Positions 20,571 to 45,575 of a stretch of DNA of 64,000 bases are shown one piece after another. This DNA is from Verrucomicrobiota bacterium. GTDB taxonomy: Bacteria; Verrucomicrobiota; Verrucomicrobiia; JABWAM01. The stretch covers positions 2,962 to 66,961 of the forward strand of contig JABDCI010000005.1 of the NCBI GenBank assembly GCA_013288215.1. Direction: 5' to 3'. A program made the position numbers and the translations under genes. Below the pieces are notes generated by a model, which saw only the letters and a program-made list of their open reading frames with translations, searched no databases and had not been told where the DNA came from. Numbering within the stretch: the first letter of the stretch is position 1; every line of letters begins with the position of its first letter.

Positions 20571-21434
20571 ATGCGAAGCGTTGGGTGCGCGATCGTGGTT
20601 CTTTTTTTTATCTTGTTTCCGGATTTTCGCGTCAGCGCGGAGGAGCGCAACATGGTGGTGGAAGTTTATCCGCTCGCACTTGCGGATTTTGATGCTTCTA
20701 TTGAAATCGCAAGGGGGCTCGTGTCACCTGAAGGCAAGCTTGTTGAAGATCGCCCCGGCAATCGCCTCATCGTGCTCGATTATCCGGAGAAGCAGGCGGA
20801 GCTTCGTATAGCGTTGAAGACTGTCGGCACGCCTCAATACAATGTACGCATCGAAGTAACATTCGATGACAACGGCGAAATCCGTTCCGATGCGATCGGG
20901 GTTCAGGGTGGTTTTCGTGTGGGTCATATTCAGGCTCCAAGCGAGCTTCCTCATGCTTCGGAGACCCACGTGGAAATCAATAGGCTGGAGGAATCACGCG
21001 CTGCGATTGTGCATCAGGAGCTTCTTGTGATGAGCGGATCCAGGGGCCGGTTGCGTGTCGGCACCGACGTGCCTTACGCGGATTGGTTCTGGAACTATGG
21101 CACGCAACTTGGATTGTGGAGCGGCGCGCTCCGATGGAAGGAACTAGGCGCGCAAATGGCGGTCGAACCTTATGTCCTGGGCCAGCGCATCCGTCTGCGT
21201 TTAACGCCGGAATTCAGCTACATGCTCGATGGAGAAAGCATGACCACCAGCGTGGAAAAGTTAATGACGGAACTATGGGTCCAGAATGGCGAGGAGGTAG
21301 ACCTTGGCGGAATATCAGCATCCGACCGGGAATTTTTTTCGCGATTTCTTGTCGGCTATAATCGTCTGGGTGAGAAGCATTCCCTTCGCATCAAGGTCAA
21401 ACCAACCATCGAACCCATCGGGCCGGCTTCTTAG
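20571..21434 (+). CDS. Short secretin-like protein (one NolW/Secretin_N-like domain plus a reduced secretin-like C-terminal region)
   Basis: It has a signal peptide ending VSA. VVEVYPLALADFDASIEIARGLVSPEGKLVEDRPGNRLIVLDYPEKQAELRIAL fits the Secretin_N pattern. NVRIEVTF and ELWVQNGEEVDLGGI...SLRIKVKPTI resemble secretin-domain start and end motifs. The CDS is solid, but the functional call is tentative. Confidence 0.45.
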   Translation: MRSVGCAIVVLFFILFPDFRVSAEERNMVVEVYPLALADFDASIEIARGLVSPEGKLVEDRPGNRLIVLDYPEKQAELRIALKTVGTPQYNVRIEVTFDDNGEIRSDAIGVQGGFRVGHIQAPSELPHASETHVEINRLEESRAAIVHQELLVMSGSRGRLRVGTDVPYADWFWNYGTQLGLWSGALRWKELGAQMAVEPYVLGQRIRLRLTPEFSYMLDGESMTTSVEKLMTELWVQNGEEVDLGGISASDREFFSRFLVGYNRLGEKHSLRIKVKPTIEPIGPAS

Positions 21435-25209: not shown

Positions 25210-26301
25210 ATGAAAGAATACCTGGACGGAATTCTCAAATACGCGGTGAACGTGGGTGCATCGGATATTCATTTGAAGCCGAACAAACAGCCCATTCTTC
25301 GAGTTTCGGCCCAACTGGTTCATGTGGAGGCGGATGCACCCACCGATTCGGACATGATCAAGATCGCTCAGCTGATTGTCCCGGAGTTTTTACGCGAGCG
25401 ATTTAACCATGATCGAGAGGTGGACTTTTCCTATTTCGTGCCGGAGATCGGGCGTTTCCGCACGAACATTTATACTCAGCGCGGACAAGTCAATGTGGCG
25501 ATGCGCTATGTGAAGAGTAAAGTTCCGAATTTCAACGCGCTGAATCTTCCCGAAGTTCTGAAAAAATTGGCGATGAGCGAGCGAGGCATCATTCTGGTGG
25601 CCGGCGCGACGGGCAGCGGCAAATCGACGACGCTCGCGTGCATGCTCGAATACGTCAATTCGCATGACAAATGCCACATCATCACGATGGAGGATCCGAT
25701 CGAATATGTTTTCGAGGATAAGCAGTGCATTATCAACCAACGCGAGGTGGGGCTTGATACTATGTCGTTTGGCGCGGCGCTCAAAAACGTGCTGCGCCAG
25801 GATCCCGATGTGATCATGGTGGGTGAGATGCGCGATGCGGAAAGTTTTTCGGCGGCGATCACCGCTGCTGAGACAGGCCATCTGGTCATGACCACGGTCC
25901 ACTCCAATAATGCCACGCAGACCATCGTCCGCGTGCTCGACTTCTTCCCGATGGAGGAACGTGAGCAGATATTGCGGGCGCTCGCGGGCTGTCTTACGGC
26001 GATCATTTGCCAGCGTATGATTCCCGCGCGTGAAGGTGGCGCGGTGCCGGCGGTGGAAATTCTTATCAACACGCCCGTTGTGCGCAAACTCCTGGAGGAG
26101 CAAAAACTCGAAAAGTTGTCCTCCGCTCTCGAGGCCGGCAGCGATGACGGCATGCAGTCCTTCAATCAATCCATTTATAAATTGATCAAGGCAGGCATGA
26201 TCAGTGAGGAAGATGGGGTGCTTAAGTCGTCCAATCCTGATCAACTTCGCATGAATTTGAAGGGCATCTTCTTGGATGAATCGCGCCGGATCATTGGATA
26301 A
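25210..26301 (+). CDS. pilT: Type IV pilus retraction ATPase PilT/PilU family
   Basis: It shows GASDIHLKPN, Walker A GATGSGKSTT, the Asp box MEDPIEY, Walker B QDPDVIMVGEMRD and the His box GHLVMTTVHSNNA. Length is 363 aa. Confidence 0.9.
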   Translation: MKEYLDGILKYAVNVGASDIHLKPNKQPILRVSAQLVHVEADAPTDSDMIKIAQLIVPEFLRERFNHDREVDFSYFVPEIGRFRTNIYTQRGQVNVAMRYVKSKVPNFNALNLPEVLKKLAMSERGIILVAGATGSGKSTTLACMLEYVNSHDKCHIITMEDPIEYVFEDKQCIINQREVGLDTMSFGAALKNVLRQDPDVIMVGEMRDAESFSAAITAAETGHLVMTTVHSNNATQTIVRVLDFFPMEEREQILRALAGCLTAIICQRMIPAREGGAVPAVEILINTPVVRKLLEEQKLEKLSSALEAGSDDGMQSFNQSIYKLIKAGMISEEDGVLKSSNPDQLRMNLKGIFLDESRRIIG

Positions 26302-26321: not shown

Positions 26322-27503
26322 ATGAATTCCTTCCGTTCCCTTTCCTCGAGGTGGCGTGTCGGTTGGGAGGATTGCCTACGCGCGGGACGGTGGCTTTGCC
26401 GCGACCGATTGAGCCTGGTCACCGCGATTTGCCTTGTTTTGGCTTTCCTGGTGCAGTTTGTCGGCATCGCAGGCATCTTTTGGTCGCGCGTTTATTTCGG
26501 AGATCATTTCGATCCTAGCGTCTATCAAACGTTTGAAGAAAAAAGATCGGACGATTCTGTCAGCAAGGTTTTTCGTCAGAAGGAAGCCGAAGCCGCGCGC
26601 CGCGCCGCAGAGTCTCCCATGCAAGACTCGGTTTCTGAGACGGTGGATCGGGCGACCCAGGAGATGGACCAGACTCGCGCCCGCCGAAACGAGGTATCCA
26701 TTATCAAACGCGAGGCTGAAAAACGTGCGGATGCGTTTCTTCGCCAGGCACAGGGATCGATGGATCACGATCTTTCAGAGACCGCCATGGAGCAGATTCA
26801 GAGCGCATTGCGTCTGGTCCCGGACTATCTGCCTGCGATCCGCAAGCTCGCGGATTATTACGAAGCAAGGCATGATTATGCGCAGGCCAGATTTCAGTGG
26901 GAACGCGCTGCTGTTATTGCCCAACCGCAGACACCGGAAATGGAGGAGATCCAGCGCGATCTGGACCGGCTGACAGCGCTTTCTGCCGAAGTGAAGGGCG
27001 AATCGCACCCGGCATCCAATTTTCACGTGGAAGCGCCTGCAGCTCCGCCGAATCCCGGCCGAATTGGAACGAACGAACTTTCCGTCAAAGCGGCTACCCG
27101 GACTGATCTTCCATTGCAGGACCTGTACGACCTTTGCTTTAATTTGCGTCTTTCGCTTGCTTCACGGGGCGAGGAAGCTTCCATGGATTATAACGATACT
27201 CGTGTGGAGATCGTTTTCTATGACCAGTCGCGCACGGCAGGTGGGATGTTAATTCCGCTCAAAGTGCTGAGCACCATTGTGAAGCCGAAGCAAAACTGGA
27301 CGACGGGAACCGAGCAGGTGTTGTCTGTGAAATATTCCGTGCCCAAAGGTTATTTTCGTAAGAAAGAGCAGAGTTTTGGGAATGCCTATTCTTTTTGCGG
27401 ATATATCGTGAATGCCTATTACCGAGGCAAGCTTTTGGACGCTTATGCTTATCCTTCGGAAGTGCTCTCAAGGTATGCGCCTAAGCCAGGAGGAACGTCG
27501 TGA
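26322..27503 (+). CDS. Membrane-anchored protein of unknown function (TM, coiled-coil/TPR-like region, C-terminal beta-rich domain)
   Basis: It has a single TM, LVTAICLVLAFLVQFVGIAGIFW. A charged helical region contains a TPR-like segment, ALRLVPDYLPAIRKLADYYEARHDYAQARFQWERA. It starts 20 nt after pilT and ends in a GTGA overlap with the next gene. Confidence 0.7.
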   Translation: MNSFRSLSSRWRVGWEDCLRAGRWLCRDRLSLVTAICLVLAFLVQFVGIAGIFWSRVYFGDHFDPSVYQTFEEKRSDDSVSKVFRQKEAEAARRAAESPMQDSVSETVDRATQEMDQTRARRNEVSIIKREAEKRADAFLRQAQGSMDHDLSETAMEQIQSALRLVPDYLPAIRKLADYYEARHDYAQARFQWERAAVIAQPQTPEMEEIQRDLDRLTALSAEVKGESHPASNFHVEAPAAPPNPGRIGTNELSVKAATRTDLPLQDLYDLCFNLRLSLASRGEEASMDYNDTRVEIVFYDQSRTAGGMLIPLKVLSTIVKPKQNWTTGTEQVLSVKYSVPKGYFRKKEQSFGNAYSFCGYIVNAYYRGKLLDAYAYPSEVLSRYAPKPGGTS

Positions 27504-29800
27504 AAGTTCTTCTGCTGGACAACGATCCCGCGGCAGCCGTGGATGTCCCGGCGGCATTTCATGGGAGTGCGTTTGACGTGGTTCTCGCTGCCACCCAGGC
27601 AGACGCCCAGTTTTCACTTGAACGAGAGTTTTTTGAAATCCTGATCGTTCACGTCGACGATCAGGATCATTCGCTTGTGCCGTTTGGTCTTCGGATGATT
27701 GCAAAATATCCGCATCTAAAACTCGGTTTTCTCACCGAACATCCTTCGTTGATCGGTTCCGAGGCAGCGCAAAAGGCCCAACTAGGCGTGCTTGAAAAAC
27801 CGCTTTCGCCATCAAAATTGACGCTGATCATCGACACGGCGCATCTCCACTCGCGCCATTACAGCAGTCTCAACGACGTGCGGCAAAAAATGGCCGCGGG
27901 CGGGTTCGGCACGTTCAGTCTCGTCGACGTGATTCAGATGTGTTGTATCAGCCAAAAGACAGGATTGCTTATCGTGCGGTCCAGTGGGCGCGAAGGCGAC
28001 ATGTACGTCCAGAGCGGCGCGATCGTGCATGCAGAGGCGCCTGGCCTTGAGGGCGAAGAGGCTGTCTATGAAATGCTTTCATGGGAGGATGCGCAGTCTT
28101 CGCTGAATGAGAGCGTGCAAGCTCCGAAGATGACAATCCAAGTGGGATGGGAGCACCTCCTGATGGAGGGTGTGCGCCGCAAAGACGAGATGCTTGAGAG
28201 GCAAGATCTCCGCTCCGATGCGGGCGCAGAGCAACTTCTTGGGAAAATGGTGGGTCCCTTCCGCGTCGATCGAAAAATCGCATCCGATTACTGGGGGACG
28301 CTTTACGAAGCGTATCAAGTGGCGGTCAATCGTCCTGTGGCTCTGAAGGTCTTGAATCCCGCTTTTTATGGCGATGGCGACAAGGCACAGCAGTTCATTT
28401 TCTTCGCGAGCGCCATGGCGCGAGCGCAAAATCCGTACATTGTGACCGTCTACGAGGCAGGCCAGGCCAATGGGCTCATCTTTTACGCGCGGGAGCAGGT
28501 GGACGGAGCGGGCCTGAAGGATCGCATTCGCCGGGGTGAGGTAATCTCCGAGGAACTGGCTTTGCGCGTGATTACCAATGTGGGCGAAGCGCTGAAATAT
28601 GAGAAGGACCACAATATTCTGCACCTGCCGCTCCTGATTGATCAAATTTTGATTCCCGACACGGGGGTTCCGAAGCTTTTCAACAATGTCACCATAGAAG
28701 GTGGCGATGTGAGTCCGGGCGAGGTGGATGAGATTCATCGGTTGACGGCCATTATTCGCCAAGCGCTTCCTGCCGAACAAATGACGCCAGGTTTTCGAAA
28801 CTTCGTGGAGCGCATGGAGGGACAAGGGTTTTCGGAATGGTCGAATGTGCTTTTGGAAGCACGCGAAATGGAACTGCATCTGCGTGCGGATCGCGTCGAT
28901 GTCAGCATGAGTTCGGTGCCAGCGGCGGAACCCGAGCCACCTCCTCCCAAAAACGCGAAATGGTGGATTTTCGGCGGAATTTTTCTCGCGCTGCTGTTCG
29001 TAGGTTCGTGGGGTTATTGGTATTGGATCAATTCTTCTCCTGGCGCACAAGATTTGGAATCGATGGTTGAGGTTCCCTCGGGACCTTTTATTTACCAGAC
29101 AGATAAAATGGGATTGCCGACCTACTACATCGACAAATACGAAGTGACGATCGGCCAGTACGGAAAGTTTCTCCAAGCGTGGCAGCACAATCACGCCATC
29201 ATCCAGGAGCATCCGAAACAACGTCCCGGCAAGGACCATACACCTGGACAATGGGACCTCATCCTTTCCGCCATCGAGAAAAAGACACTGCTCAATGGCG
29301 TCAGGATTTATGAAAACACACCTGTTTTCAACGTGGATTACTTCGACGCGTGGGCTTATGCCAAATGGGCGGGCAAGCGCTTGCCCACCGAATATGAGTG
29401 GGAAAAGGCGGCGCGGGGAAAGGATGGATTTCTCTACCCATGGGGCAATGCTTTCGATCCCAAAAAGGCGAATACAGGTGCGGATTTGAGCTACAGTGCG
29501 TCGGATCCCACGTTTGGAAAAATTGACGGCTATGGAATCTGGGCGCCGGTGGGAGCGATTCCGGAGGATAAAAGTCCGTTCGGAGCGATGGATATGGCGG
29601 GCAATGTCAGTGAATGGACAGATTCCTGGGATGCCAATCCTGATTTTCCAACGGAGCAAGTGCCCGTGGTGCGCGGCGGTTCATGGGCGGTTACCGATGT
29701 GCGGCTGACTCTGCGCGATTTGCGCCAGGCTCCTTTGAAGCGCAGTCGCCAAATTGGATTCCGTTGTGCGTCCGATCTGCCGCCGGCTCGCGATCATTAG
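27500..29800 (+). CDS. Multidomain signalling protein: REC-like, DUF4388-like, degenerate Ser/Thr kinase (pseudokinase), TM, and FGE-sulfatase (SUMF1-like) domain
   Basis: The GTG start has an AGGAGG Shine-Dalgarno sequence. REC-like: MKVLLLDNDP...VLEKPLS. DUF4388-like: FSLVDVIQMCCISQKTGLLIVRS...GAIVHAE...GEEAVYEMLSW. Kinase-like: VALKVL is present, but HRD is replaced by HLPLLIDQ and DFG by LFN. The TM is WWIFGGIFLALLFVGSWGYWYWI. FGE domain: YYIDKYEVT, RLPTEYEWEKAARG, GNVSEW and VVRGGSW. Confidence 0.8.
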   Translation: MKVLLLDNDPAAAVDVPAAFHGSAFDVVLAATQADAQFSLEREFFEILIVHVDDQDHSLVPFGLRMIAKYPHLKLGFLTEHPSLIGSEAAQKAQLGVLEKPLSPSKLTLIIDTAHLHSRHYSSLNDVRQKMAAGGFGTFSLVDVIQMCCISQKTGLLIVRSSGREGDMYVQSGAIVHAEAPGLEGEEAVYEMLSWEDAQSSLNESVQAPKMTIQVGWEHLLMEGVRRKDEMLERQDLRSDAGAEQLLGKMVGPFRVDRKIASDYWGTLYEAYQVAVNRPVALKVLNPAFYGDGDKAQQFIFFASAMARAQNPYIVTVYEAGQANGLIFYAREQVDGAGLKDRIRRGEVISEELALRVITNVGEALKYEKDHNILHLPLLIDQILIPDTGVPKLFNNVTIEGGDVSPGEVDEIHRLTAIIRQALPAEQMTPGFRNFVERMEGQGFSEWSNVLLEAREMELHLRADRVDVSMSSVPAAEPEPPPPKNAKWWIFGGIFLALLFVGSWGYWYWINSSPGAQDLESMVEVPSGPFIYQTDKMGLPTYYIDKYEVTIGQYGKFLQAWQHNHAIIQEHPKQRPGKDHTPGQWDLILSAIEKKTLLNGVRIYENTPVFNVDYFDAWAYAKWAGKRLPTEYEWEKAARGKDGFLYPWGNAFDPKKANTGADLSYSASDPTFGKIDGYGIWAPVGAIPEDKSPFGAMDMAGNVSEWTDSWDANPDFPTEQVPVVRGGSWAVTDVRLTLRDLRQAPLKRSRQIGFRCASDLPPARDH

Positions 29801-29905: not shown

Positions 29906-30748
29906 ATGGCTAAGCCCAAGCGTTCCAGCGCCGAGTACGAGCAACTGCTCCAGACGGTGCAGATGTTCGAAGTTATTGCCGAGACTCAGCCCAACGACAT
30001 TCAGTCGCTGGAAATCCTAAAAGAAGCGTATTTGAATCTCGATCGCGACGGCGATGCGGTCGTGGTGGCAAAAAAAATCGCGCAGGCTTACGTCAGTCTG
30101 GGACAATTGTCGTCCGCGATTCTCGAATATGAAGGCATTCTCCAGCGCGCGCCGGACGACCCCGACTGCCTTGCGGCACTGGGCGAACTCGAAGGCAAGA
30201 TGACGGGTCTATCCGTGGGGTCGGCTGAAATTGTGGCGGGGAAAGTTGCGGCGGAGCAAGCGCTCGCCGATGCCGAGCAGTTTGAAGACGGCAACGAAGC
30301 CCTTCTTAAATTTTTTCAGGAACAGCAGCTTGTCACGGAAAAGGATGCCAAGACCTTGCTGGCGGGAATTTCTGCGGCAGTTGCGCAGACATCGCCCGAA
30401 CGGCCTGCGCCGTCTCTCATCGCACTTATCAGTGAGCGGGGAATTGCTTCCGAGGAGAAGTGTCTTGGGTTGATCGCGGAGAAAACGCGCATTCCATTCC
30501 TTCCTCTGGGCAGCTACGAGATTGAGAGTGGGCGCGCGCAGTCGCTGGCGAAGGAGTTCAAACTCAAGCATCTCGTGCTTCCTTTTGACCAAATCAGCAA
30601 AACCCTGCTTGTGGCGACCGTGAATCCCTTCGATGCCTTGGCAAAACGGCGCGTGGAAAAAGAAGCTGAAGGGCGCGTGCAATGGTATGTCACTTCGCCG
30701 TTTGATATCACGAAGCAGCTTAAAGATCTTTATCACATTTTGACATGA
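29906..30748 (+). CDS. TPR-like plus T2SSE_N (GspE/MshE N-terminal)-domain protein without an ATPase domain
   Basis: From the ATG at 29906 it reads MAKPKRSSAEYEQLL. The TPR-like helices read LEILKEAYLNLDRDGDAVVVAKKIAQAYVSLGQLSSAILEYEGILQRAPDD. The C-terminus LGLIAEKTRIPFLPLGSYEIE...LKHLVLPFDQISKTLLVATVNPFD is typical of T2SSE_N. It ends in an ATGA overlap with pilB. Confidence 0.7.
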   Translation: MAKPKRSSAEYEQLLQTVQMFEVIAETQPNDIQSLEILKEAYLNLDRDGDAVVVAKKIAQAYVSLGQLSSAILEYEGILQRAPDDPDCLAALGELEGKMTGLSVGSAEIVAGKVAAEQALADAEQFEDGNEALLKFFQEQQLVTEKDAKTLLAGISAAVAQTSPERPAPSLIALISERGIASEEKCLGLIAEKTRIPFLPLGSYEIESGRAQSLAKEFKLKHLVLPFDQISKTLLVATVNPFDALAKRRVEKEAEGRVQWYVTSPFDITKQLKDLYHILT

Positions 30749-32448
30749 AATCCTTTGGTGAGCGCATTGCAGATGCTTTGATTGAGGACGGAGTCCTGCA
30801 AACAGAACAGTTGCAGGAAGTGATGGTGCAGCAAAAAAGTCAGGGAGGACGGCTTCTCAAGATCCTTCTGGATAAATCGTATGTGACAGAGCAGGACATG
30901 ATGGTAAGCATGGGCCGCACGCTGGGTACGCCACCCATTAATCTGAGCCGGTTGAAGGTGGTGAAGGAGGTTGCCGATCTCGTGCCCCGCGATGTTGCCA
31001 GGAATCACCATCTTCTTCCCTTCGCCAAGCTCAACAATACGCTTTACGTGGCAATGGCTGATCCGTTGAACGTGCTGGCACTCGATGACGTGCGTCAGAT
31101 CACGCATCTGGAGGTGTTTCCGATGATCACCACGGAACGCATGGTGCTCGACGCGATCGCGAACATCGACGCCCAGGCGAGCCAGGGAATGGAGGAGATC
31201 ATTAAGGACGAGTCCGTTGACATTGAAGTTTCCGACACCCCTGCGGAGGAGGAGGCCGATGTGACGTCAACGGATTCTTCCGCCGCGCCCGTTGTCAAAA
31301 TTGCCAACCTCATGTTCGCCACGGCGGTGAAGGACAAGGCGAGCGACATCCATCTTGAGTGTTACGAGCGCAGCATGAAATTGCGCTACCGCATCGATGG
31401 TTCCCTTTACGATTATCCACCGCCTCCGAAAGGCATGCAGGCTGCGTTGATTTCGCGCCTCAAAATCATGGCCCATCTCGACATCTCCGAACGCCGTTTG
31501 CCGCAAGACGGTCGCGTGCGCATCAAGATGGCGGGGCGTGACATCGATTTTCGTATGTCGTTTCTTCCCACCAAATATGGGGAAAAGGTCGTCGGTCGTA
31601 TTCTCGACAAAACATCCATTAGCGGAAGCATCGCGGAAATCGGGATGGATCCAGACTCGATGAAGATTTTCAAGGATGCGCTCGATGAACCCCAGGGAAT
31701 GATTCTCGTGACGGGCCCCACCGGATCCGGAAAAACACGCACGCTTTATTCAGCTTTGGCCGAATTGAACAAACCCCAATACAATATTGTCACGGTCGAG
31801 GATCCGATCGAATATGAATTGCCGGGCATCAATCAGGTGCAGGTGAAATCGGACATCGGATTCACGTTTGCCGCTGCTCTGCGATCGATTTTACGCCAAG
31901 ATCCGGACATCGTGATGATTGGTGAAATGCGCGACCAGGAGACGGCGCATATCGGCGTCGAAGCAGCCCTGACCGGCCACCAGGTATTAAGCACGCTTCA
32001 TACCAATGACGCTGCCAGCGCTGTGACTCGTCTGACCGATATGGACATTGAGCCCTTTCTGACGACATCCAGCCTCTCGCTCGCCTGCGCTCAGCGGCTC
32101 CTGCGCCGCGTCTGCACCTCGTGCAAGGAAGCGGTGAAGGTTCCTGACAAATTATGGGAGCAGCTGCGCATCAATCCGAAGGAAGAGGCGGCGTTTACGT
32201 TCTATAAAGGGCGCGGTTGCGATCGCTGCAAAAACAAAGGCTACTCCGGACGGTGCGCCGTGATCGAGCTGATTCGCATCAACGACGACCTTCGCAAACT
32301 CATCCTCGAGCGCACGAGTGCCGCGGAAATCAAGACGCTTGCGCTCAAACAGGGGATGCGCACGTTACGCATCAATGGTATTCTTAAGGCGCGCGAAGGC
32401 ATTACCACCCTCGAAGAAGTTCTGGCAAATACGGCGAGCGATCTGTGA
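30745..32448 (+). CDS. pilB: Type IV pilus assembly ATPase PilB (GspE family)
   Basis: It has an N-terminal T2SSE_N domain, Walker A GPTGSGKTRT, VEDPIEY, Walker B QDPDIVMIGEMRD, GHQVLSTLHTND, and a tetracysteine motif CTSC...CDRC. Length is 567 aa. Confidence 0.92.
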   Translation: MKSFGERIADALIEDGVLQTEQLQEVMVQQKSQGGRLLKILLDKSYVTEQDMMVSMGRTLGTPPINLSRLKVVKEVADLVPRDVARNHHLLPFAKLNNTLYVAMADPLNVLALDDVRQITHLEVFPMITTERMVLDAIANIDAQASQGMEEIIKDESVDIEVSDTPAEEEADVTSTDSSAAPVVKIANLMFATAVKDKASDIHLECYERSMKLRYRIDGSLYDYPPPPKGMQAALISRLKIMAHLDISERRLPQDGRVRIKMAGRDIDFRMSFLPTKYGEKVVGRILDKTSISGSIAEIGMDPDSMKIFKDALDEPQGMILVTGPTGSGKTRTLYSALAELNKPQYNIVTVEDPIEYELPGINQVQVKSDIGFTFAAALRSILRQDPDIVMIGEMRDQETAHIGVEAALTGHQVLSTLHTNDAASAVTRLTDMDIEPFLTTSSLSLACAQRLLRRVCTSCKEAVKVPDKLWEQLRINPKEEAAFTFYKGRGCDRCKNKGYSGRCAVIELIRINDDLRKLILERTSAAEIKTLALKQGMRTLRINGILKAREGITTLEEVLANTASDL

Positions 32449-32516: not shown

Positions 32517-34298
32517 ATGGCCTTCCGGCTTCCATTTTTTAAGTCCAAAGCACCCGCCCAGCCCGCGGCGGGGGCTCCTGCACTGCCACCACCGGCGACG
32601 CCTCCGGCATCTGCATCCAGCCCCAGCGAATCGGTGGTTCGCTCTCCTGCACATACGCAACTAGCCCCATCCCTTGCGAGAAAGGTTCCACCGCGCCAGG
32701 GCAATCTGGCTGCCGCTCTCCAGGCTGCCTCTCAACTTCATCCGGCCGGAACTCAATCCGCTGTTTTCAAACCGAAGGTGAGCGTCGTCGTGAAGGCCCC
32801 ACCCGCTTCGGAGATCCCATCCATTTCGCGTGTGCCGGAACCTGTGATGGAGCAATCCGCCCCGCCGCCTGTCGAAATTCCTTCGACGGTGGATATTCCG
32901 ACATCGGAGATCCTTCCTCTGCTTCCTGAAAACGTGTTGAAACTCGGCTATACCGGAGGATTTCCATCGACTGTTTCGTTGTCTGTCACGGACATTCTAC
33001 CGCAATTGGCGAAGGGACGCGTGCTCTTTTCAATGAGTACGCTCCTGGCTTCGTTTCCGCCGGATTCCATTGAGGCGTCCGTCGTGGAAAGCGGCGACAT
33101 CCAGATCAAGATGCCTCTTCATCAAATCGTTCCCCGTCTTCCTGAGAGTGTGATGCAGCTTCCCACGGGGCAGGTAAAACAGCAAATCGACTCCACGATT
33201 GAGGTTCCATTTTCCGAAAAAGGAAACAAACCCGCGGTTCCGGCGCCCAAAGAAGCCTGGTCTGGACCTAAGCAACCCGAGCCTCCAGCTCTGCCTCCAA
33301 GGCCAATGGCACCCCCGCTTTCCCCTGCAAATTCCCCTTCAGAATCGAAGAGTCCGCTGCTCAAGGACAAACTTGCCGCCGCGACAGCGCTTACTCCGCT
33401 GACATCGCTTTCGCCCTCTGAGGCGACCAGCGCCCTAACCACCTCGATCAAGCTGCCGCTGAAGCCCACCGCTTCCGCGAAGATCCCGCTTCCTGGAATT
33501 CCAAGTCCGGCGCCTCTTCCATCGCCCTCGAAGTCATCGCCCACGATTCGCAAGCCGGATCCCGAGGATCCCATGATGGCTGCGACCATCAAATTTCAGC
33601 CGCCTTCGAATCTCAGAGAGCTGCCTTCGATCAAATTGCCGCATCCCATTGTGTCTCATGCTGAGACGCCTTCGTCGGCTCCTGCACCGATCATCTCTCC
33701 GTCGACGACCACGGGCGATGCCGGATTGTTTGGCACGAATGCCATTCCTCCGGCAGCTCTTCCCATGCTTCCTCGTCCCATCATCAAGTCTGCATCTGCG
33801 ATCATTCCCGTGCCGGACAAGCCCGTCCCACTTCCCCCGGTCGAGAACAAGTTGGTTACGCCCTCAAAACCAGTCGAATCCGTCTCCCAAGGATTGCGTT
33901 CTTTACTCGACATCCCGCAGCAGGACCCCATCCGCTTGCAGGACGTGGCGGCGAAGATTCGAACGCGCCTTAATTCGTTGGGGGTGTTAGTGGCTACCGA
34001 GGATGGTTTGCCGCTTGTCTCGGCAATGCCGGCCGGCGCCGATCTCAACGGCTGGAGCAGCATTGGCACCCACGTATTCCGCAAGTTGGAGCAAGTGAGC
34101 CATAAGCTCTCCTTCGGCACCCCCCAGCGTTGCCTGTTGAGTATCGACGATTGCTGGATTACTGTTTGGCATGACCATGGGGTCTACATGGTTGTGCGCC
34201 ACGGACTCGAACAGATCTCTCCGGAATTTGAAATGCAGATCTCCGAATTAGGAAAGGCAATTGCCGAACATTGCCGCACGCAGCACGCTGCCTCTTAG
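32517..34298 (+). CDS. Proline-rich protein with a C-terminal Roadblock/LC7 (MglB/MglC-like) domain
   Basis: About 480 aa are Pro/Ser/Ala-rich and low in complexity, with three copies of an ILPxLPExV-like motif. The C-terminal ~110 aa (LNSLGVLVATEDGLPLVSAMPAG...CLLSIDDCWITVWHDHGVYMVVRH) fit the Roadblock/LC7 pattern. The stop lies 3 nt before mglA. Confidence 0.7.
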   Translation: MAFRLPFFKSKAPAQPAAGAPALPPPATPPASASSPSESVVRSPAHTQLAPSLARKVPPRQGNLAAALQAASQLHPAGTQSAVFKPKVSVVVKAPPASEIPSISRVPEPVMEQSAPPPVEIPSTVDIPTSEILPLLPENVLKLGYTGGFPSTVSLSVTDILPQLAKGRVLFSMSTLLASFPPDSIEASVVESGDIQIKMPLHQIVPRLPESVMQLPTGQVKQQIDSTIEVPFSEKGNKPAVPAPKEAWSGPKQPEPPALPPRPMAPPLSPANSPSESKSPLLKDKLAAATALTPLTSLSPSEATSALTTSIKLPLKPTASAKIPLPGIPSPAPLPSPSKSSPTIRKPDPEDPMMAATIKFQPPSNLRELPSIKLPHPIVSHAETPSSAPAPIISPSTTTGDAGLFGTNAIPPAALPMLPRPIIKSASAIIPVPDKPVPLPPVENKLVTPSKPVESVSQGLRSLLDIPQQDPIRLQDVAAKIRTRLNSLGVLVATEDGLPLVSAMPAGADLNGWSSIGTHVFRKLEQVSHKLSFGTPQRCLLSIDDCWITVWHDHGVYMVVRHGLEQISPEFEMQISELGKAIAEHCRTQHAAS

Positions 34299-34301
34299 AT
34301 C

Positions 34302-34946
34302 ATGTCGATCATTAATTACGCCAACAAAGAGATCCAGTTTAAGATCGTCTACTACGGCCCCGCACTTTGCGGAAAAACCACCAATCTGTCCTACATCCAT
34401 TCCCAGGTCGCGCCTGAAAACAAAGGAGATCTCGTCTCCCTTGCCACAGCCGCCGACCGCACGCTTTTCTTCGATTTCCTTCCGCTCAATGCCGTTGTGA
34501 TCAAAGGCTTCAAGACCAAGTTCCAACTTTATACGGTGCCGGGCCAAGTCATCTACAACATCACGCGCCAACTTGTGCTGCGCAGTGTCGATGGCATTGT
34601 CTTCGTTGCCGATTCGCAGTGGGAAAAAATGGAGGAAAACATCGAGAGCTTCAAAAACCTCGAAGAAAATCTCACCAAACAGAATCTGAGCCTCGACACC
34701 GTTCCCTACGTGCTTCAATACAACAAGAGAGATATGCCGCATGTCGCGCCGATCAATTATATGGAGTATGTTCTCAACAACCGAAAGGTGAGGGTGCAGT
34801 CGTTCGAATCCGTGGCGAGCACCGGACAGAACGTGTTTTCGACGCTGAACGCCATCTCACGGCTTTTACTCTATAAGTTCACCAAAGAAAGCGACCTTGC
34901 CAACAAACGGTCCAAGACCACCGTGTTGATGTCGACAGTTCGGTAA
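34302..34946 (+). CDS. mglA: MglA-type Ras-like small GTPase
   Basis: [29 protein letters not shown]...[10 protein letters not shown]...YTVPGQV...VFVADSQ...QYNKRD closely parallels Myxococcus MglA as recalled from memory ([29 protein letters not shown]...). Confidence 0.9.
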   Translation: [214 protein letters not shown]

Positions 34947-34960
34947 CCTGGAAACCAATT

Positions 34961-35434
34961 ATGGAAACCATCCCCTTCTTGACCAAGGAAGACGTTGCCG
35001 CCCTCGACAGTCTTCTCATGCACTATCTTGAAAAAACGAGCGGTACGCTGACGCTTGTGATCGACAAAGGTGGGACCATCATTGCGCAGCAGGGCGAAAT
35101 AGAATCCATCGACATCGTCATTGTTTCCGCTCTCGCAGCAGGATCCTTCGCGGCGACCAAGGAATTGGCCCGCCGCATCGGTGAAAATGAATTCAGCGCT
35201 CTCTATCATCAGGGTGTAGACCGTCATATCTTCATGGCCGCGCTGGATGAGCACACCGTCATCGTGACGGTGTTTGGCGACCGCACCACGATAGGACTCG
35301 TACGCCTGTTTACGGTCAACGTCGCCGCCCAGCTTCGTACGCTGCTCAATCAGCTCCGGCAGCGCGACGGCCTCGAGCCGAAACTGGTTCTTGAAGAAGA
35401 TCTTCCCGTCGTCGGAGAGAATATTTTTGGCTAA
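34961..35434 (+). CDS. mglB: MglB-type Roadblock/LC7 protein (predicted MglA GAP)
   Basis: LVIDKGGTIIAQQG, IGENEF and TTIGLVRL match recalled MglB motifs (FLVDKNGQLIS, IGENEF, SLGLVRL). It starts 14 nt after mglA. Confidence 0.85.
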   Translation: METIPFLTKEDVAALDSLLMHYLEKTSGTLTLVIDKGGTIIAQQGEIESIDIVIVSALAAGSFAATKELARRIGENEFSALYHQGVDRHIFMAALDEHTVIVTVFGDRTTIGLVRLFTVNVAAQLRTLLNQLRQRDGLEPKLVLEEDLPVVGENIFG

Positions 35435-35494
35435 CCGCCGTTCCTTTGTTGCCACCAAAAGACGCCGGGCGGCTTGGCGCATTGTTTTGTTCGG

Positions 35495-43103: not shown

Positions 43104-45575
43104 ATGCAGAACCAGCCCAGCGAAGCCGGTCCGAGTCTGAAGCCGTGTCCTCAGTGCGGGACCATGGTGCAATTTAATTTGCAGGATGGCCGACACATCT
43201 GTCCGCAATGCGGGTACCTTCTTCCCGAACAGGTTGCCCACTACAAGCTGCTTCAGATCATCGGCACCGGCGGCATGGGGGCGGTTTACCGGGGCCTCGA
43301 TATCTCGCTCGAGCGAAACGTGGCAGTCAAGGTGATGCGCGAGGAATTCGCGAAAAATCCCCAATTTGTGGAAAGCTTTCTTCGTGAGGCGCGTGCCGCG
43401 GCTTCCCTCAACCATCCCAACGTTGCGCAAATTTATTCCTTCGGCGAGCAGGAGGGACGCTATTATCTTGTCATGGAACTGCTTCCTGGTGGAAGTCTCG
43501 ATGATCGTATCGAGAAAGAGCATCATGTATCGGAGGTGGATGTTTTGGATGTGGGAATCCAAGTGGCAAGCGGCTTGCGCGCGGCCTACGAGCGTGGATT
43601 GATCCATCGCGACATCAAGCCGGGCAACATTCTTTTTTCACAGGACGGAACGGCAAAGGTTGTGGATTTTGGCTTGGCGCGGTTCGTGACGAAGGCTGCT
43701 GCGCAGCACCAAGAAGAAGGCATTTGGGGAACTCCCTATTATATTGCACCCGAGAAGGTTTCGCAGAACAAAGAGGATTTCCGAAGCGATATTTACAGCC
43801 TTGGCGGCACGCTCTTTCATGCGTTGGCGGGACGTCCTCCTTTTGATGCCGGCACTTCGACCGAAGTCGTTCTCAAGCACCTGCATTCTCCCGCGGTTTC
43901 CCTCAAGACTTTCGCTCCCGACAGCACCGATCAGACTGCGGAAGTGATCGGGCGCATGCTTCGGCGCGATCCCGCTGACCGGCCGAAAAGCTACGACGAG
44001 TTGATCAATGCGCTGGCTTATGCGAAACGTTTTGCTCTCGAAAAAAGACCGCGTGCGGCTCTCGCTGAAGAGGACAGGGATCTTCCGATTGGCATGCTCG
44101 TGAGCACGGTGGCCATGATCGCTCTCACGCTGGCCCTTCTCGTATGGGGCTGGTATCACCGAAGCAAGATTTTCGGCGAGAGTCCGGGGTCTGCAGCGGT
44201 TTCGACAAATTCAATAACTCCGACCGCAAACACGGAAGCTGTTTCTCCTGCGCCGCAGCCTCAGGTTGCCACGCGTGACGAGTTCCTGATCGACATTGAC
44301 AACGCGCATGAGATCGCTAATCGCGAGGGCGCTTCTTCCGCCATCCCGCGTTTTGAGGACATTTTAAACCGCTTGCCCCCCAATCATGAGCTTCGACCGT
44401 GGGTCAAGTTGCACCTGGCTCGTGCCAAATTGATGACGGGCCGCGACGCTCCTGAGCTTGTGGAGCTGAGTGGCACGCGCACGGCTGACAGCTACGCCAA
44501 TGGTGTTAGCCCGGCAGACTACCCATTCTTTCTTGCGCTTTTGCTTCAAGGCAAAGTGCCTCAGGATGTATTCAGTCGTGCCATTTCAGGAATGCCCAGC
44601 TGGATGCAGGCGATCTCTCATTTCGACGCGGGCTTCGCCGCCCAAAAGCTGGACCGTCTCACAGACACTGCACGCTATTGGCGCGCTTACTCGGACATGA
44701 CGAAGGGCCCAGATGAAGAATGGGCCTTCGCGTATCAAACGCTCGCCCTCAATTTCGTGAATGAATACGAGCAGTACCAAACGATGGCGTCGGACATCAT
44801 GACCCTCCAAAATGCGGGAAGAGTCGAACAAGTTGCGACGCTCCTGAAAGAAAAGCAGGTTATCTGGCAAAATCCTTCCATTCGCACGCGCGTGGACAAG
44901 CTCACGGAGGTCAACCACGCTGCCCTTGCCAGGAAACGGGCGGACCAAGAGGAGAAAGCCCGACAAGAGGCGGCCCGACAGCAGGAGATCGACGCAGAAA
45001 ACCGATTGGTCGAAAATGCCCGCAGGCAGCGTGTCGGCTATCTCCAGGGATATCAATTCGATGCGCTTCTGGATTCCTGGCAAAAGCTTTCTTCTCAAGT
45101 GAAGTCGGATTCCAATCGCAAAGTGGTCCAGTATCATATCGAAGTGGACAAGTTGCTTGAGGAGTTCAAGCAGGTTCTGACGGAGGACATCCAGGATCAT
45201 CCTTATGAGGATCAGAATATCACCACCAAAACCAACTTGAAAATGGTCGGCATCCTTTCTGAAGTACGGGAAGAAAAGTTGATTTTCCGCACTCAATTTG
45301 CGCCAGGGCAAATCGCAGAAACTGCCTGCAAATGGTCGGATCTTTATCCCTCAACCATTTTGGAAATCGCCGAATATTATCTTGATCGCGATGAAAAAAC
45401 TTCCGGAGCGAATGCGAATGATCTGGCGCGGCGCGCGCTTATGATTGCGGTGTTCACTCGGGAATATGCTCTCTCCGAGGGCAAGATGCAAAAATATTTG
45501 GCCTATGCGATGAACGCCCAGGCTAATATTCGAAATCAAGTCGATCTGCTCTTTCCACCGGTCGTGCCGCGTTAA
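43104..45575 (+). CDS. Ser/Thr protein kinase with an N-terminal zinc ribbon, one TM and a large C-terminal domain of unknown function
   Basis: The zinc ribbon is CPQCG...CPQCG. The kinase motifs are intact: GTGGMGAVY, VAVKVM, HRDIKPGNIL, DFGLAR and GTPYYIAPE. The TM is IGMLVSTVAMIALTLALLVWGWY. About 470 aa of tail contain a coiled coil, RKRADQEEKARQEAARQQE. Confidence 0.9.
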   Translation: MQNQPSEAGPSLKPCPQCGTMVQFNLQDGRHICPQCGYLLPEQVAHYKLLQIIGTGGMGAVYRGLDISLERNVAVKVMREEFAKNPQFVESFLREARAAASLNHPNVAQIYSFGEQEGRYYLVMELLPGGSLDDRIEKEHHVSEVDVLDVGIQVASGLRAAYERGLIHRDIKPGNILFSQDGTAKVVDFGLARFVTKAAAQHQEEGIWGTPYYIAPEKVSQNKEDFRSDIYSLGGTLFHALAGRPPFDAGTSTEVVLKHLHSPAVSLKTFAPDSTDQTAEVIGRMLRRDPADRPKSYDELINALAYAKRFALEKRPRAALAEEDRDLPIGMLVSTVAMIALTLALLVWGWYHRSKIFGESPGSAAVSTNSITPTANTEAVSPAPQPQVATRDEFLIDIDNAHEIANREGASSAIPRFEDILNRLPPNHELRPWVKLHLARAKLMTGRDAPELVELSGTRTADSYANGVSPADYPFFLALLLQGKVPQDVFSRAISGMPSWMQAISHFDAGFAAQKLDRLTDTARYWRAYSDMTKGPDEEWAFAYQTLALNFVNEYEQYQTMASDIMTLQNAGRVEQVATLLKEKQVIWQNPSIRTRVDKLTEVNHAALARKRADQEEKARQEAARQQEIDAENRLVENARRQRVGYLQGYQFDALLDSWQKLSSQVKSDSNRKVVQYHIEVDKLLEEFKQVLTEDIQDHPYEDQNITTKTNLKMVGILSEVREEKLIFRTQFAPGQIAETACKWSDLYPSTILEIAEYYLDRDEKTSGANANDLARRALMIAVFTREYALSEGKMQKYLAYAMNAQANIRNQVDLLFPPVVPR

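Follow-up and report, generated by a model that had tools for sequence, protein, structure and literature searches.

A conserved Verrucomicrobial membrane protein combining an outside-facing sensor, a dead kinase and a PATAN domain

The 64,000-nucleotide stretch of Verrucomicrobiota DNA analysed here (the window) was found to encode, within a run of pilus and Mgl genes, a conserved Verrucomicrobial membrane protein that combines an outside-facing sensor with a dead kinase and a PATAN domain (Table 1). This protein, referred to as the target, descended from a common Hanks-kinase/TM/FGE-sulfatase receptor architecture. The whole activation segment is gone, and so are the αC acid, the glycines of the G-loop and two Asp residues, the catalytic one and that of DFG; an N-terminal receiver and PATAN domain are present. 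We infer that it probably relays signals from the envelope to the pilus motor without acting as an enzyme. No description of the target protein was found in the literature.

Table 1. Coordinates of the target, its domains and the surrounding gene run (positions in the window)
Feature	Position	Strand	Evidence
PilT-like ATPase (363 aa), which opens the run	25210..26301	+	PF00437 E 5e-49
Membrane-anchored TPR/β-sandwich partner, 393 aa	26322..27503	+	ORF listing, locus comparison, AF2
Target gene: REC-like/PATAN/mini-pseudokinase/TM/FGE-like protein	27500..29800	+	ORF, Pfam, 22 orthologs, AF2
Target, pseudo-receiver, aa 1-115	27500..27844	+	Profile vs PDB, AF2
Target, PATAN/DUF4388, aa 134-231, short form without α-clip insertion	27899..28192	+	Pfam, AF2
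Target, mini-pseudokinase, aa 251-470	28250..28909	+	Pfam, BLASTP, MAFFT, ortholog alignment, Foldseek
Target, single TM helix, aa 488-511, N-in/C-out	28961..29032	+	AF2, hydrophobic window
Target, periplasmic FGE-sulfatase-like domain, aa 520-760, without catalytic Cys pair	29057..29779	+	Pfam, alignment
TPR + MshEN (PilB-N-terminal-type) protein	29906..30748	+	PF05157 E 1.5e-10, TPR_14
PilB-type extension ATPase (MshEN + T2SSE)	30745..32448	+	PF00437 E 1.9e-132, PF05157 E 1.2e-16
593-aa protein without Pfam match, syntenic between PilB and MglA	32517..34298	+	tblastn
MglA-like small GTPase	34302..34946	+	Arf/Ras Pfam matches, motifs
MglB-like Roadblock/LC7 protein	34961..35434	+	PF03259 E 2.9e-12
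Terminator-like hairpin downstream of the final gene	35463..35479	+	Consensus scan, weak evidence alone

Architecture, topology and N-terminal domains

The target ORF (766 aa, GTG start) occupies exactly the interval 27500-29800, and the multidomain architecture proposed for it in the initial annotation was borne out by the ORF call, Pfam and an AF2 model (mean pLDDT 81.7), the order being receiver-like, PATAN/DUF4388, kinase-like, one TM helix and FGE-sulfatase-like. The AF2 model, the flank charges (0 inside, -3 outside) and the ranking of hydrophobic windows also agree with the topology that had been suggested, in which the receiver, PATAN and pseudokinase are cytoplasmic and the FGE domain lies outside. 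The single TM segment was recovered as an AF2 helix; the stretch at aa 488-506 is uncharged, Trp/Gly-rich and has a KD value of 1.49. Of 22 family sequences, 20 have their top hydrophobic window at this alignment position and the other two (P0010 and P0012) their second.

The N-terminal domain was shown by profile comparison with the PDB to resemble the CheY-like receiver 3crn (E 7.8e-15), and was modelled by AF2 as a (βα)5 fold with β3 at aa 47-51. Its receiver-type residues comprise D7-N8, T79 and K100-P101, with His51 at the acceptor position (end of β3, ILIVH). The earlier receiver assignment therefore holds for the fold and the KP pair, but not for the candidate acceptor Asp in IVHVDD, as D53 and D54 are out of register and the acceptor Asp of 3crn aligns to H51; the domain is accordingly a pseudo-receiver. 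The acceptor position is variable within the clade of the target, whereas most members of the wider family carry the canonical set (DD..D..T/S..K), the receiver of the target's subclade having lost its phospho-acceptor. Since a His, not conserved in the clade, takes the acceptor position, an acceptor-Asp mutant would be uninformative.

The following domain matched PF14332 over positions 2-120 of the 122-position profile (aa 134-230, E 1.8e-19). DUF4388 is PATAN itself, and the suggestion that it is related to PATAN-type domains co-occurring with motility regulators agrees with published data: in cyanobacteria, PATAN alone binds the N-terminal region of PilB1 and PilC's N-terminal domain, is membrane-localised and suffices to reverse pilus-driven phototaxis, PilT not being bound in this sole experimental precedent (bioRxiv 10.1101/2021.06.11.447907). 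The mglA and mglB genes recur close to PATAN genes (PMC4316618). The cyanobacterial PatA-type (PATAN-REC) regulators PixG, PixE, LsiR and PatA likewise pair a CheY-like receiver with PATAN/DUF4388; their site of action is the inner membrane, on the type IV pilus motor, and their orphan members work without phosphorylation, with PATAN alone as the output (bioRxiv 10.1101/2021.06.11.447907). Unlike these regulators, the target has the reversed order (REC then PATAN), a His at the acceptor position and a short PATAN domain without the α-clip insertion, is integral to the membrane, contains a pseudokinase as well as a periplasmic domain, and belongs to a Verrucomicrobial rather than a cyanobacterial family.

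Kinase-like and FGE-sulfatase-like domains

The Pkinase profile matched aa 258-393 over only positions 5-139 of 263 (E 6.7e-9, 36 bits vs a cutoff of 31.7), and the best Foldseek matches were PknA, PknB and PknI of M. tuberculosis (TM 0.56-0.66), so that, with the AF2 model, the kinase fold is seen to persist. Kinase motifs were compared by BLASTP against the canonical kinase of the window, by MAFFT, in an alignment of 22 orthologs and in the AF2 model. The second kinase (43104-45575) was confirmed as canonical, with GxGxxG, VAVK, αC Glu, HRD, DFG and APE all present. In the target, the β3 Lys of VALKVL (K283) is kept, as reported initially, and is invariant among the 22 orthologs; ASDYWG replaces GxGxxG, leaving only the last glycine, and the αC helix (aa 293-308) carries F302 at the Glu position, consistent with the degenerate G-loop and unrecognisable αC Glu described before. 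The replacement of HRD was similarly upheld: HLPLLIDQ (H375 to Q382) aligns to HRDIKPGN, placing Pro377 at the HRD Asp position, with the catalytic-loop Lys and Asn missing and His375 nearly invariant among the orthologs.

Loss of DFG was also confirmed, although LFN is not its equivalent; the true register, N395-N396-V397, is shifted by two residues, and lies 13 residues from Q382 (the catalytic-loop Asn position), the same distance as in the canonical kinase of the window. Asn395, at the DFG Asp/metal-binding position, is invariant in the 22 orthologs. The reported absence of APE extends to the whole activation segment, the P+1 loop and αG: the αF-like helix at 408 follows N395 after only 12 residues, and the corresponding count is 13-17 in the family vs 33-40 in canonical kinases. 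BLASTP, MAFFT and ortholog alignments thus support a catalytically dead kinase, and, as judged from these alignments, kinase death is a family trait and not a sequencing quirk. The pseudokinase N-lobe exhibits the highest mean pairwise identity of all domains (75%, vs 63% for the FGE-like domain, 63% for PATAN within the clade and 31% for the receiver, which is the least conserved), which indicates selection for a non-catalytic function.

An atypical active kinase or nucleotide-transferring enzyme with non-canonical residues, like some former pseudokinases, appears very improbable: the catalytic base (Pro377 stands in its place), catalytic-loop Lys/Asn, αC acid and all but one G-loop glycine are missing, together with αG and the substrate-binding platform (activation segment, P+1 loop and APE). 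Moreover, about a quarter of the wider family, and the majority of PATAN-less sister-group proteins, have another residue instead of the β3 Lys. What speaks for such an enzyme is the conservation of the N-lobe, K283, Asn395 and, nearly, His375, together with wider-family members that keep DFG or its Asp (P0136, LCDFGL; P0152 and P0146) or an acidic αC residue. The invariant β3 Lys and Asn395 still allow for nucleotide binding or atypical activity.

Hanks-type receptor Ser/Thr kinases of the Pkinase-TM-FGE-sulfatase type, in which the FGE-sulfatase domain is C-terminal and extracytoplasmic (e.g. P0025-P0036; 'Proteo1' in the bacterial STK atlas), share the topology and the type of outside domain, and are related in sequence in the kinase and FGE parts, but they keep the catalytic motifs and the full C-lobe, whereas the target has lost the HRD Asp, DFG Asp, G-loop, αC acid, activation segment and αG, and gained an N-terminal REC-PATAN. 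Membrane-associated dead Hanks-type domains are also found in the bacterial pseudokinase families CP1, DYD, ActPs1-3, DLHK and GLW (including M. tuberculosis MviN), among which the activation loop is attenuated in ActPs3/MviN and αG is absent from ActPs1 (bacterial STK atlas). The VAIK Lys is substituted in all or part of the members in each of the seven described families, in contrast to K283 in the 22 orthologs, and none is described with a PATAN domain. The atlas mentions FGE-sulfatase only for a canonical family, and Verrucomicrobia are unmentioned in its main text.

The C-terminal domain is a strong FGE-sulfatase match (PF03781, aa 536-757, E 4.1e-45) with many invariant residues among the orthologs (RLPxExEWE, GNVxEWT and GFR), and the NCBI name reads 'SUMF1/EgtB/PvdO family nonheme iron enzyme'. 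Match, motifs and name would suit an enzyme modifying a periplasmic substrate (e.g. pilin or the partner), with the cytoplasmic domains only regulating or localising it. However, the fate of the catalytic Cys pair, a point raised in the initial annotation, argues otherwise: in alignment with human FGE (1y1e), Cys336 is replaced by Val and Cys341 falls in a 5-residue deletion, so the domain is no FGE enzyme. The DinB-type N-terminal domain of EgtB/OvsA is missing as well, matches spanning only their C-terminal FGE-like part; among solved structures, CalU17 and SUMF2 come closest; and the invariant motifs are fold-defining, being common to non-enzymatic members such as PorK/GldK. An enzymatic role is thus considered improbable. 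SUMF2/pFGE is not known to have FGE activity. SUMF2/pFGE (an ER protein), CalU17 (a biosynthetic-cluster protein) and PorK/GldK (T9SS ring) share the fold and structural motifs without the Cys pair, but are soluble or lipoproteins, whereas the domain of the target is a signalling ectodomain.

Genomic context and proposed role

Placement of the target in a pilus/MglA cluster was substantiated by PilT, PilB, the MglA-like GTPase and the MglB-like Roadblock protein lying on the same strand at close spacing, the eight genes of the run being tightly packed or overlapping; no pilC, pilin or pilMNOPQ genes were found in the window. The TPR-MshEN gene, which overlaps the PilB start by 4 nt and keeps its synteny in L085 and L086 as well as at the P0004 locus, likely starts at ATG 29906 (280 aa, matching orthologs), the ORF listing giving TTG 29837. 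The 593-aa protein has a Pro/Ser/Ala-rich N-terminal region and a conserved C-terminal domain of ~130 aa, gave no Pfam match, and has ends conserved in L085 and L086 (tblastn). The MglA-like protein carries a GKT P-loop, TVPGQ and NKRD, and is 87-97% identical in syntenic loci.

The gene directly upstream, which the initial annotation did not mention, shows translational coupling to the target: the two overlap by GTGA, and an AGGAGGA Shine-Dalgarno lies at 27489-27495. The encoded partner consists of an N-in membrane anchor (aa ~31-55, flank charges +4/-3), a long coiled coil, TPR-like helices and a C-terminal β-sandwich (AF2 pLDDT 66.6). Partner homologs lie directly upstream in every homolog locus examined with visible upstream DNA, among them L081, L082, L083, L084, L085 and L086 and the PATAN-less sister-group loci L003-L006 and L009. 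Judged by gene order, this gene, and no pilus or Mgl protein, is the most conserved genomic partner of the target.

Clustering at 50% identity gives a small family of 34 clusters, of which every named member is from Verrucomicrobiota; sister-group proteins without PATAN include some from Akkermansiaceae, Prosthecobacter and Chthoniobacterales genomes. The 22 aligned orthologs are 34-74% identical to the target. Related genomes preserve the linkage to PilT, PilB and MglAB. The PilT-partner-target order was observed in all seven Verrucomicrobiae-clade loci with visible upstream DNA, and is strictly kept in orthologs down to ~50% identity, whereas the full PilT...PilB...MglA-MglB run occurs in four of eight close loci, with only PilT adjacent in the other four. 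The latter loci sit uneasily with a pilus-motor reading, as PilT was left unbound by cyanobacterial PATAN. No pilus or Mgl genes were found in the 2.5-10 kb flanks available for the distant PATAN-bearing orthologs L082, L083 and L090, and the sister proteins that lack PATAN but share the partner gene have none nearby either; the pilus link is therefore clade-specific, and the conserved core function may be non-pilus.

A somewhat unlikely reading takes the partner and the pseudokinase-TM-FGE protein as a general two-gene module across Verrucomicrobiota that monitors an envelope or glycan feature (e.g. peptidoglycan or surface polysaccharide) with various outputs, the pilT/pilB/mglAB adjacency in one clade being secondary, i.e. 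gene-order history or one of several outputs. Such a module would fit the constant presence of the partner, also in sisters without nearby pilus genes, the secreted ~300-aa protein and Amidase_3 cell-wall amidase shared downstream by L082 and L083, and the precedent of M. tuberculosis MviN, which the bacterial STK atlas cites as a pseudokinase of the membrane with a part in envelope biogenesis. Against it stand the strict PilT-partner-target order, the tight packing of the eight genes on one strand, and the fact that PATAN has so far been experimentally tied only to the pilus motor.

An analogy, and no more than that, is offered by MasABK of Myxococcus xanthus (kinase MasK, membrane protein MasA and lipoprotein MasB), in which a protein of kinase fold and its envelope partners form a membrane complex. 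MasABK is encoded next to mglBA, genetically linked to mglA and affects type IV pilus motility (PMC3546991); MasK, however, is described as a protein kinase rather than a pseudokinase, and lacks PATAN, REC and FGE domains.

The scaffold or receptor role put forward in the initial annotation is thus partly supported, by the dead kinase, the FGE-like domain's lack of the Cys pair, the topology, the PATAN identity and the clade linkage, but not as regards the acceptor Asp or PilT as a PATAN target. With about even confidence, we favour a non-catalytic, single-pass TM signalling scaffold, a bacterial 'receptor pseudokinase', that would pass a cue from the periplasm to both the MglAB module and the pilus motor. 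The FGE-like domain would bind an envelope or extracellular ligand, probably with the co-translated partner, and the conserved pseudokinase N-lobe would relay the signal by a conformational or dimerisation switch with no enzyme activity. PATAN, as the output, would bind PilB at the latter's N-terminal MshEN-type region, the separate TPR-MshEN protein and/or PilC. Together with the MglA/MglB polarity switch encoded alongside, it could thereby bias pilus extension vs PilT-driven retraction. Signalling in the clade of the target would then be phosphorylation-independent.

Domain architecture and membrane topology

The ORF listing of the window, Pfam and structure prediction agree on the multidomain protein proposed in the initial annotation: a single 766-aa ORF with a GTG start spans exactly the interval 27500-29800 on the forward strand. 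Pfam searches identified a DUF4388/PATAN domain at aa 134-230 (E 1.8e-19, 70.4 bits against a cutoff of 25, with the profile covered at nearly full length), a Pkinase match at aa 258-393 (profile positions 5-139 of 263, E 6.7e-9, 36 bits against a cutoff of 31.7), which reaches from the N-lobe only as far as the catalytic loop, and an FGE-sulfatase domain (PF03781) at aa 536-757 (E 4.1e-45). An AlphaFold2 (AF2) model, for which 22 orthologs served as input, had a mean pLDDT of 81.7 and resolved the segments listed in the table. The significant PF14332 profile match places the central domain among PATAN domains; the protein is not of the PatA type, as its receiver (REC) precedes PATAN and is followed by a pseudokinase, a transmembrane (TM) helix and an FGE-like domain. 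The segment at aa 488-506 is Trp/Gly-rich and uncharged (KD 1.49), and the same aligned position ranks first in hydrophobicity in 20 of the 22 family sequences and second in the other two. The flanking charges agree with an N-in, C-out topology.

Coordinates of the domains of the 766-aa protein, of the genes around it and of further features (aa, residues of the protein named; other positions refer to the window unless a locus is named)
Feature	Position	Strand	Remarks
Receiver-like (beta-alpha)5 domain	aa 1-115		766-aa protein, AF2
Disordered linker	aa 115-136		766-aa protein, AF2
Compact PATAN domain	aa 137-231		766-aa protein, AF2; without alpha-clip insertion
Kinase N-lobe	aa 254-332		766-aa protein, AF2
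Reduced kinase C-lobe			766-aa protein, AF2; alphaD, alphaE, short catalytic-loop region, helices 408-422, 430-440 and 447-470
Helix ahead of FGE-like domain	aa 488-511		766-aa protein, AF2
287-aa protein	20571-21434	+	Secretin match below cutoff
PilT-like ATPase	25210-26301	+	gene 1 of run
393-aa partner	26322-27503	+	gene 2 of run
766-aa protein	27500-29800	+	gene 3 of run
TPR + MshEN protein	29906-30748	+	gene 4 of run
PilB	30745-32448	+	gene 5 of run
PilB N-terminus	30745-30850	+	first ~30 residues, RIADALIEDGVLQTEQLQEVMVQQ
593-aa protein	32517-34298	+	gene 6 of run
MglA-like GTPase	34302-34946	+	gene 7 of run; GKT, TVPGQ, NKRD
MglB-like Roadblock protein	34961-35434	+	gene 8 of run
Canonical kinase, 823 aa	43104-45575	+	zinc-ribbon-like motif at aa 13-37
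752-aa ORF	45662-47920	-	three in-frame domains
Low-molecular-weight phosphotyrosine phosphatase	aa 35-177		in 752-aa ORF
Ribose-5-phosphate isomerase B	aa 198-335		in 752-aa ORF
Serine hydroxymethyltransferase	aa 345-721		in 752-aa ORF
Secreted ~300-aa protein + Amidase_3 amidase, locus L082	12406-13344		3' of the homolog of the 766-aa gene
Secreted ~300-aa protein + Amidase_3 amidase, locus L083	7835-8704		3' of the homolog of the 766-aa gene
cNMP-binding + PATAN protein and Pkinase genes, locus L088	2111-5403	-	P0013 locus

A profile built from the first 120 residues matched solved receivers with an E value of 7.8e-15, and the AF2 pattern is that of a (beta-alpha)5 domain. The CheY-like fold of the initially proposed receiver therefore holds. 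Its acceptor does not: an Asp in IVHVDD (D53 or D54) had been put forward, but alignments to solved receivers and to canonical family members (e.g. P0020, LLITD) place His51, the last residue of beta3 (ILIVH), at the phospho-acceptor position. Close orthologs carry A, R, H, S or L there, and most members of the wider family either have the canonical set of receiver residues (DD...D...T/S...K) or carry Glu in the acceptor's place. The 766-aa protein has D7-N8 (the first alone being acidic), T79 and K100-P101, of which the clade conserves P101 only. With a mean pairwise identity of 31%, REC is far less conserved than any other domain. Judged by its acceptor residue, the domain is a pseudo-receiver and not a phosphorylatable receiver.

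The FGE fold of the C-terminal domain was evident from both the PF03781 match and matches in the PDB. The catalytic Cys pair, whose retention had been left open in the initial annotation, is missing: in an alignment with human FGE (1y1e), Cys336 is replaced by Val and Cys341 falls within a 5-residue deletion, and no conserved Cys was found at the catalytic site in the ortholog alignment of the 766-aa family. The closest solved relatives are CalU17 and SUMF2/pFGE, and the domain is predicted not to be an FGE enzyme. An enzymatic role for this fold is improbable, because the catalytic residues are missing. Matches to EgtB, OvsA, PvdO and PorK/GldK were limited to the shared FGE-like fold, so that the NCBI name 'SUMF1/EgtB/PvdO family nonheme iron enzyme' is a fold label that conveys no function, and this misleading database name can be put right.

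A reduced kinase fold

The register of the kinase-like domain was derived from BLASTP against the canonical kinase of the window, a MAFFT alignment and the ortholog alignment, all three of which were concordant. The bilobal kinase fold is kept, with Mycobacterium tuberculosis PknA, PknB and PknI as the best Foldseek matches (E 1e-12, target-normalised TM 0.56-0.66). The region is degenerate as initially described, with the Lys of VALKVL retained: the beta3 (VAIK) Lys corresponds to K283, which is invariant among the 22 orthologs, while the G-loop GxGxxG reads A-S-D-Y-W-G (the final Gly alone retained), the alphaC Glu is replaced by F302 and there is no APE. The catalytic loop HRDIKPGN reads H375-L-P-L-L-I-D-Q382, in which Pro, Leu and Gln replace Asp, Lys and Asn, and alignment revealed no HRD in any of the 22 orthologs. 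The D-F-G position is occupied by N395-N396-V397, with Asn395 invariant in the same 22 sequences. The earlier assignment of LFN to this position was two residues out of register, as the spacing of 13 residues between Q382 and the pseudo-DFG is the same in the canonical kinase.

Reduction of the domain extends further than the initial annotation, which had rightly called it dead, recognised. N395 is separated by 12 residues from the alphaF-like helix at 408, and the stretch from pseudo-DFG to alphaF measures 13-17 residues in the family versus 33-40 in canonical kinases of the same alignment, indicating that the activation loop, the P+1 loop and APE have been deleted. Furthermore, no alphaG was found in the AF2 model. 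Two of the three catalytic-triad residues are lost in all 22 orthologs, whereby the domain falls under the definition of a pseudokinase (a kinase fold in which one or more of VAIK-Lys, HRD-Asp and DFG-Asp are missing), and the G-loop, alphaC Glu, catalytic loop, DFG Asp and activation segment/alphaG of an active Hanks-type kinase are absent. On sequence grounds, the kinase domain of the 766-aa protein is catalytically dead. Atypical kinase activity is highly improbable, because the catalytic residues are missing and the substrate-binding platform has been deleted. In the Verrucomicrobiae clade, no part of the protein is better conserved than the N-lobe (mean pairwise identity 75% versus 63% for PATAN and FGE), and its conservation despite a dead site argues for a selected, non-catalytic function.

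The second kinase of the window possesses all canonical motifs, as stated initially, and carries a zinc-ribbon-like motif (PF11781-type match) ahead of its kinase domain. It is a candidate active partner of the pseudokinase, but nothing connects the pair. Elsewhere in the window, a 752-aa ORF encodes three unrelated in-frame domains, a phosphatase, an isomerase and a hydroxymethyltransferase, which appear to be fused; the corresponding genes are separate neighbours in some bacteria.

Distribution, gene neighbourhood and the partner gene

A word-indexed search for the same architecture among 5.8 billion proteins retrieved ~24 full-length proteins with 34-74% identity to the 766-aa protein (22-sequence alignment), the named members belonging to Verrucomicrobiae and Chthoniobacterales. 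When aa 130-480 served as the query of an exhaustive HMMER search, 1.84 billion representatives clustered at 50% identity yielded only 34 clusters at E <= 1e-30. Among the 40 top representatives, Pkinase was present in 34, FGE-sulfatase in 27, DUF4388 in 26 and Response_reg in 22. The short activation stub is universal among these top representatives, most of which carry Asn at the DFG-Asp position and retain an acidic alphaC residue, Asp or Glu (FIADAS), and the beta3 Lys; the latter is substituted in about a quarter of the wider-family representatives. The DFG Asp is lost throughout the wider family and the sister group except in a few proteins (P0136, with LCDFGL, P0146 and P0152), and P0131 retains Asp at the HRD position. 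The subclade of the 766-aa protein is the most degenerate: its members lack the receiver acceptor, the glycines of the G-loop and the acidic alphaC residue.

Homologs without PATAN, encoded in Akkermansiaceae, Prosthecobacter, Terrimicrobiaceae and Chthoniobacterales genomes, form a sister group that possesses the same mini-pseudokinase with a variable beta3 Lys. A scan of GTDB species representatives returned mainly unrelated FGE-domain proteins; the relatives recovered were the sister proteins (loci L002-L010) and a truncated ortholog (L001), none of which had pilus neighbours.

The 766-aa gene lies within a same-strand run of eight genes (table). The partner gene overlaps it by GTGA, with a Shine-Dalgarno sequence (AGGAGGA) 5 nt upstream of the GTG, and the stop of the TPR-MshEN gene overlaps the PilB start by 4 nt. 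A consensus scan detected a terminator-like hairpin 3' of mglB, which is weak evidence alone, while promoter matches were no commoner than in shuffled sequence. No pilC, pilin or pilMNOPQ genes were found within the window, the remaining genes of which are housekeeping.

Several genes in and near the run merit separate mention. The TPR-MshEN protein, of PilB-N-terminal type, stands alone and keeps its place upstream of PilB in related loci; it could mimic the PilB N-terminus or compete for PATAN or c-di-GMP. The PilB N-terminus itself, RIADALIEDGVLQTEQLQEVMVQQ, resembles by eye the 24-residue c-di-GMP-binding motif of MshEN domains, a candidate match with, as one deviation, Ala instead of Gly at position 3. 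The 593-aa protein, syntenic between PilB and MglA in L085, L086 and the P0004 locus, has no Pfam match; its long N-terminal region is rich in Pro, Ser and Ala and probably disordered, and its C-terminal domain of ~130 aa is conserved. Its C-terminus looked like Roadblock/LC7 by eye, an assignment that found no support in Pfam (no match), BLASTP against MglB (insignificant) or the PDB (best E value 0.59). The 287-aa protein is 63% identical to its counterpart in L086 and encoded ~4 kb upstream of pilT with housekeeping genes between; its Secretin match (E 3e-6) scores 27.4 bits, just short of the 27.5-bit cutoff, and it may represent a diverged piece of a secretin-family protein. In the P0013 locus (L088), a gene for a cNMP-binding and PATAN protein (358 aa) adjoins a 739-aa Pkinase gene on the strand opposite to the ortholog, representing a second, split PATAN/kinase pairing in that genome.

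The full run also occurs at the loci of P0003 (74% identity), P0004 (54%) and P0008 (51%), while P0005, P0010, P0012 and P0013 keep PilT, partner and target alone, and the distant P0020, P0022 and P0024 keep only the pair of partner and target. Co-location with pilT, pilB, mglA and mglB was thus observed as the full run in four of the eight close loci and as PilT only in the other four, with no pilus/Mgl co-location at any of the three distant or nine sister-group loci. Linkage to pilus and Mgl genes characterises a single clade.

The partner itself is more widely retained. HMM searches detected its homologs with E < 1e-96 at close loci, with 4e-9 at L083 and with 6e-3 at L082 (both distant PATAN-bearing loci), with hhalign probabilities of 94% and 80% for the latter two, respectively, and the PATAN-less sister genes of L003, L004, L005, L006 and L009 likewise have a homolog immediately upstream. 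As a partner homolog is found upstream of 766-aa homologs wherever the upstream DNA is visible, the conserved core is a two-gene module. The word-indexed search retrieved only five partner homologs, the distant ones being visible by profile methods alone. An Arg-rich N-terminus (+4) precedes the partner's strong TM segment (KD 2.63), behind which the sequence turns acidic, and by these flanking charges its bulk should be periplasmic. In its predicted fold (AF2 pLDDT 66.6), a long helix or coiled coil and TPR-like helices are followed by a beta-sandwich at the C-terminus. The best structural match of the latter was Amuc_1102 (PDB 7dsz), from a pilus-like gene cluster of Akkermansia muciniphila (E 2.6e-4, TM 0.43), which, given the weak match and the model pLDDT, is kept only as a lead.

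In L082 and L083, two of the three distant ortholog loci, the target gene is followed by genes for a secreted ~300-aa protein with a signal-peptide-like N-terminus (35% identity between the two loci) and an Amidase_3 cell-wall amidase. The ~300-aa gene was considered as a diverged TPR-MshEN gene and rejected, being that of a distinct secreted protein common to both loci. These neighbours hint at an envelope-related role of the ancestral module. The main rival to a function in pilus control, namely a general envelope-sensing role of the two-gene module with the pilus link as secondary, is rather unlikely in our estimation.

Proposed function and significance

PATAN, the same domain as DUF4388, has been characterised in Synechocystis, where the domain alone binds the N-terminal region of PilB1 (aa 1-366, including MshEN/GspE_N-type domains) and PilC's N-terminal domain, does not bind PilT1 or PilT2, is membrane-localised and is sufficient for reversal of pilus-driven phototaxis (bioRxiv 10.1101/2021.06.11.447907). 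Such binding of PATAN to PilB and PilC is known from the Synechocystis proteins only. Homologs of mglA and mglB recur in the neighbourhood of PATAN genes (PMC4316618), and the Myxococcus MasABK complex, a kinase-containing membrane complex whose genes adjoin mglBA, influences pilus motility (PMC3546991).

The anatomy and topology of the 766-aa protein, the disappearance of catalytic residues from the kinase, receiver and FGE domains, a kinase that is dead family-wide, the coupled partner gene and the clade-level PilT/PilB/MglAB linkage are established, and from these we infer, with about an even chance of being correct, that the protein is a phosphorylation-independent transmembrane scaffold that conveys an envelope cue to the pilus motor together with MglA/MglB. 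The ectodomain and the partner would sense an envelope or extracellular cue, which the pseudokinase would pass on by conformation or dimerisation; PATAN would dock on PilB, the stand-alone MshEN protein or PilC and, together with MglA and MglB, bias extension versus retraction. The scaffold or receptor of the initial annotation is partly supported, being plausible and consistent with precedent, but that account overlooked the most conserved partner and the restriction of the pilus link to one clade.

The components are already known, i.e. PATAN pilus regulators, receptor kinases with FGE-sulfatase ectodomains and pseudokinases with trimmed activation loops (MviN/ActPs3). No description of a REC-PATAN-pseudokinase-TM-FGE protein with an obligate partner gene, placed among pilT/pilB/mglAB, was found in the searchable literature, and the literature on PATAN with pseudokinases and on FGE-sulfatase with kinase function contained no such architecture and no ectodomain ligand. 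In the 2025 bacterial STK atlas, the VAIK Lys is substituted in all seven pseudokinase families (CP1, DYD, ActPs1-3, DLHK and GLW). Compared by text description only, the present family differs in keeping K283, the atlas text ties none of the seven to PATAN or Verrucomicrobia, and at this level of comparison the 766-aa family is absent from the atlas. With its retained beta3 Lys, conserved Asn at DFG and drastically trimmed C-lobe, it represents a bacterial pseudokinase type that the atlas does not obviously cover and, whatever its pilus role, a compact model of non-catalytic kinase-fold signalling.

A broader reading can be offered tentatively, as a possibility we do not favour strongly: the partner and pseudokinase-TM-FGE genes may constitute an unrecognised transmembrane signalling device, so far seen in Verrucomicrobiota only, in which the dead minimal kinase would act as a ligand-operated allosteric or dimerisation switch and the PATAN branch would gate the pilus motor ATPases and MglA/MglB directly, without phosphotransfer. 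If true, it would be the bacterial equivalent of the receptor pseudokinases of eukaryotes and would transmit an extracellular cue directly to pilus polarity. To our knowledge, routes from surface or extracellular cues to the type IV pilus motor and MglA are known in few model systems, namely the chemosensory pathways Chp, Frz and Tax, the PATAN proteins studied to date are soluble, and the motility of the phylum Verrucomicrobiota is essentially unstudied. With its outside-facing domain and its conserved periplasmic partner, a PATAN protein that spans the membrane would link the envelope directly to the motor, independently of phosphorylation.
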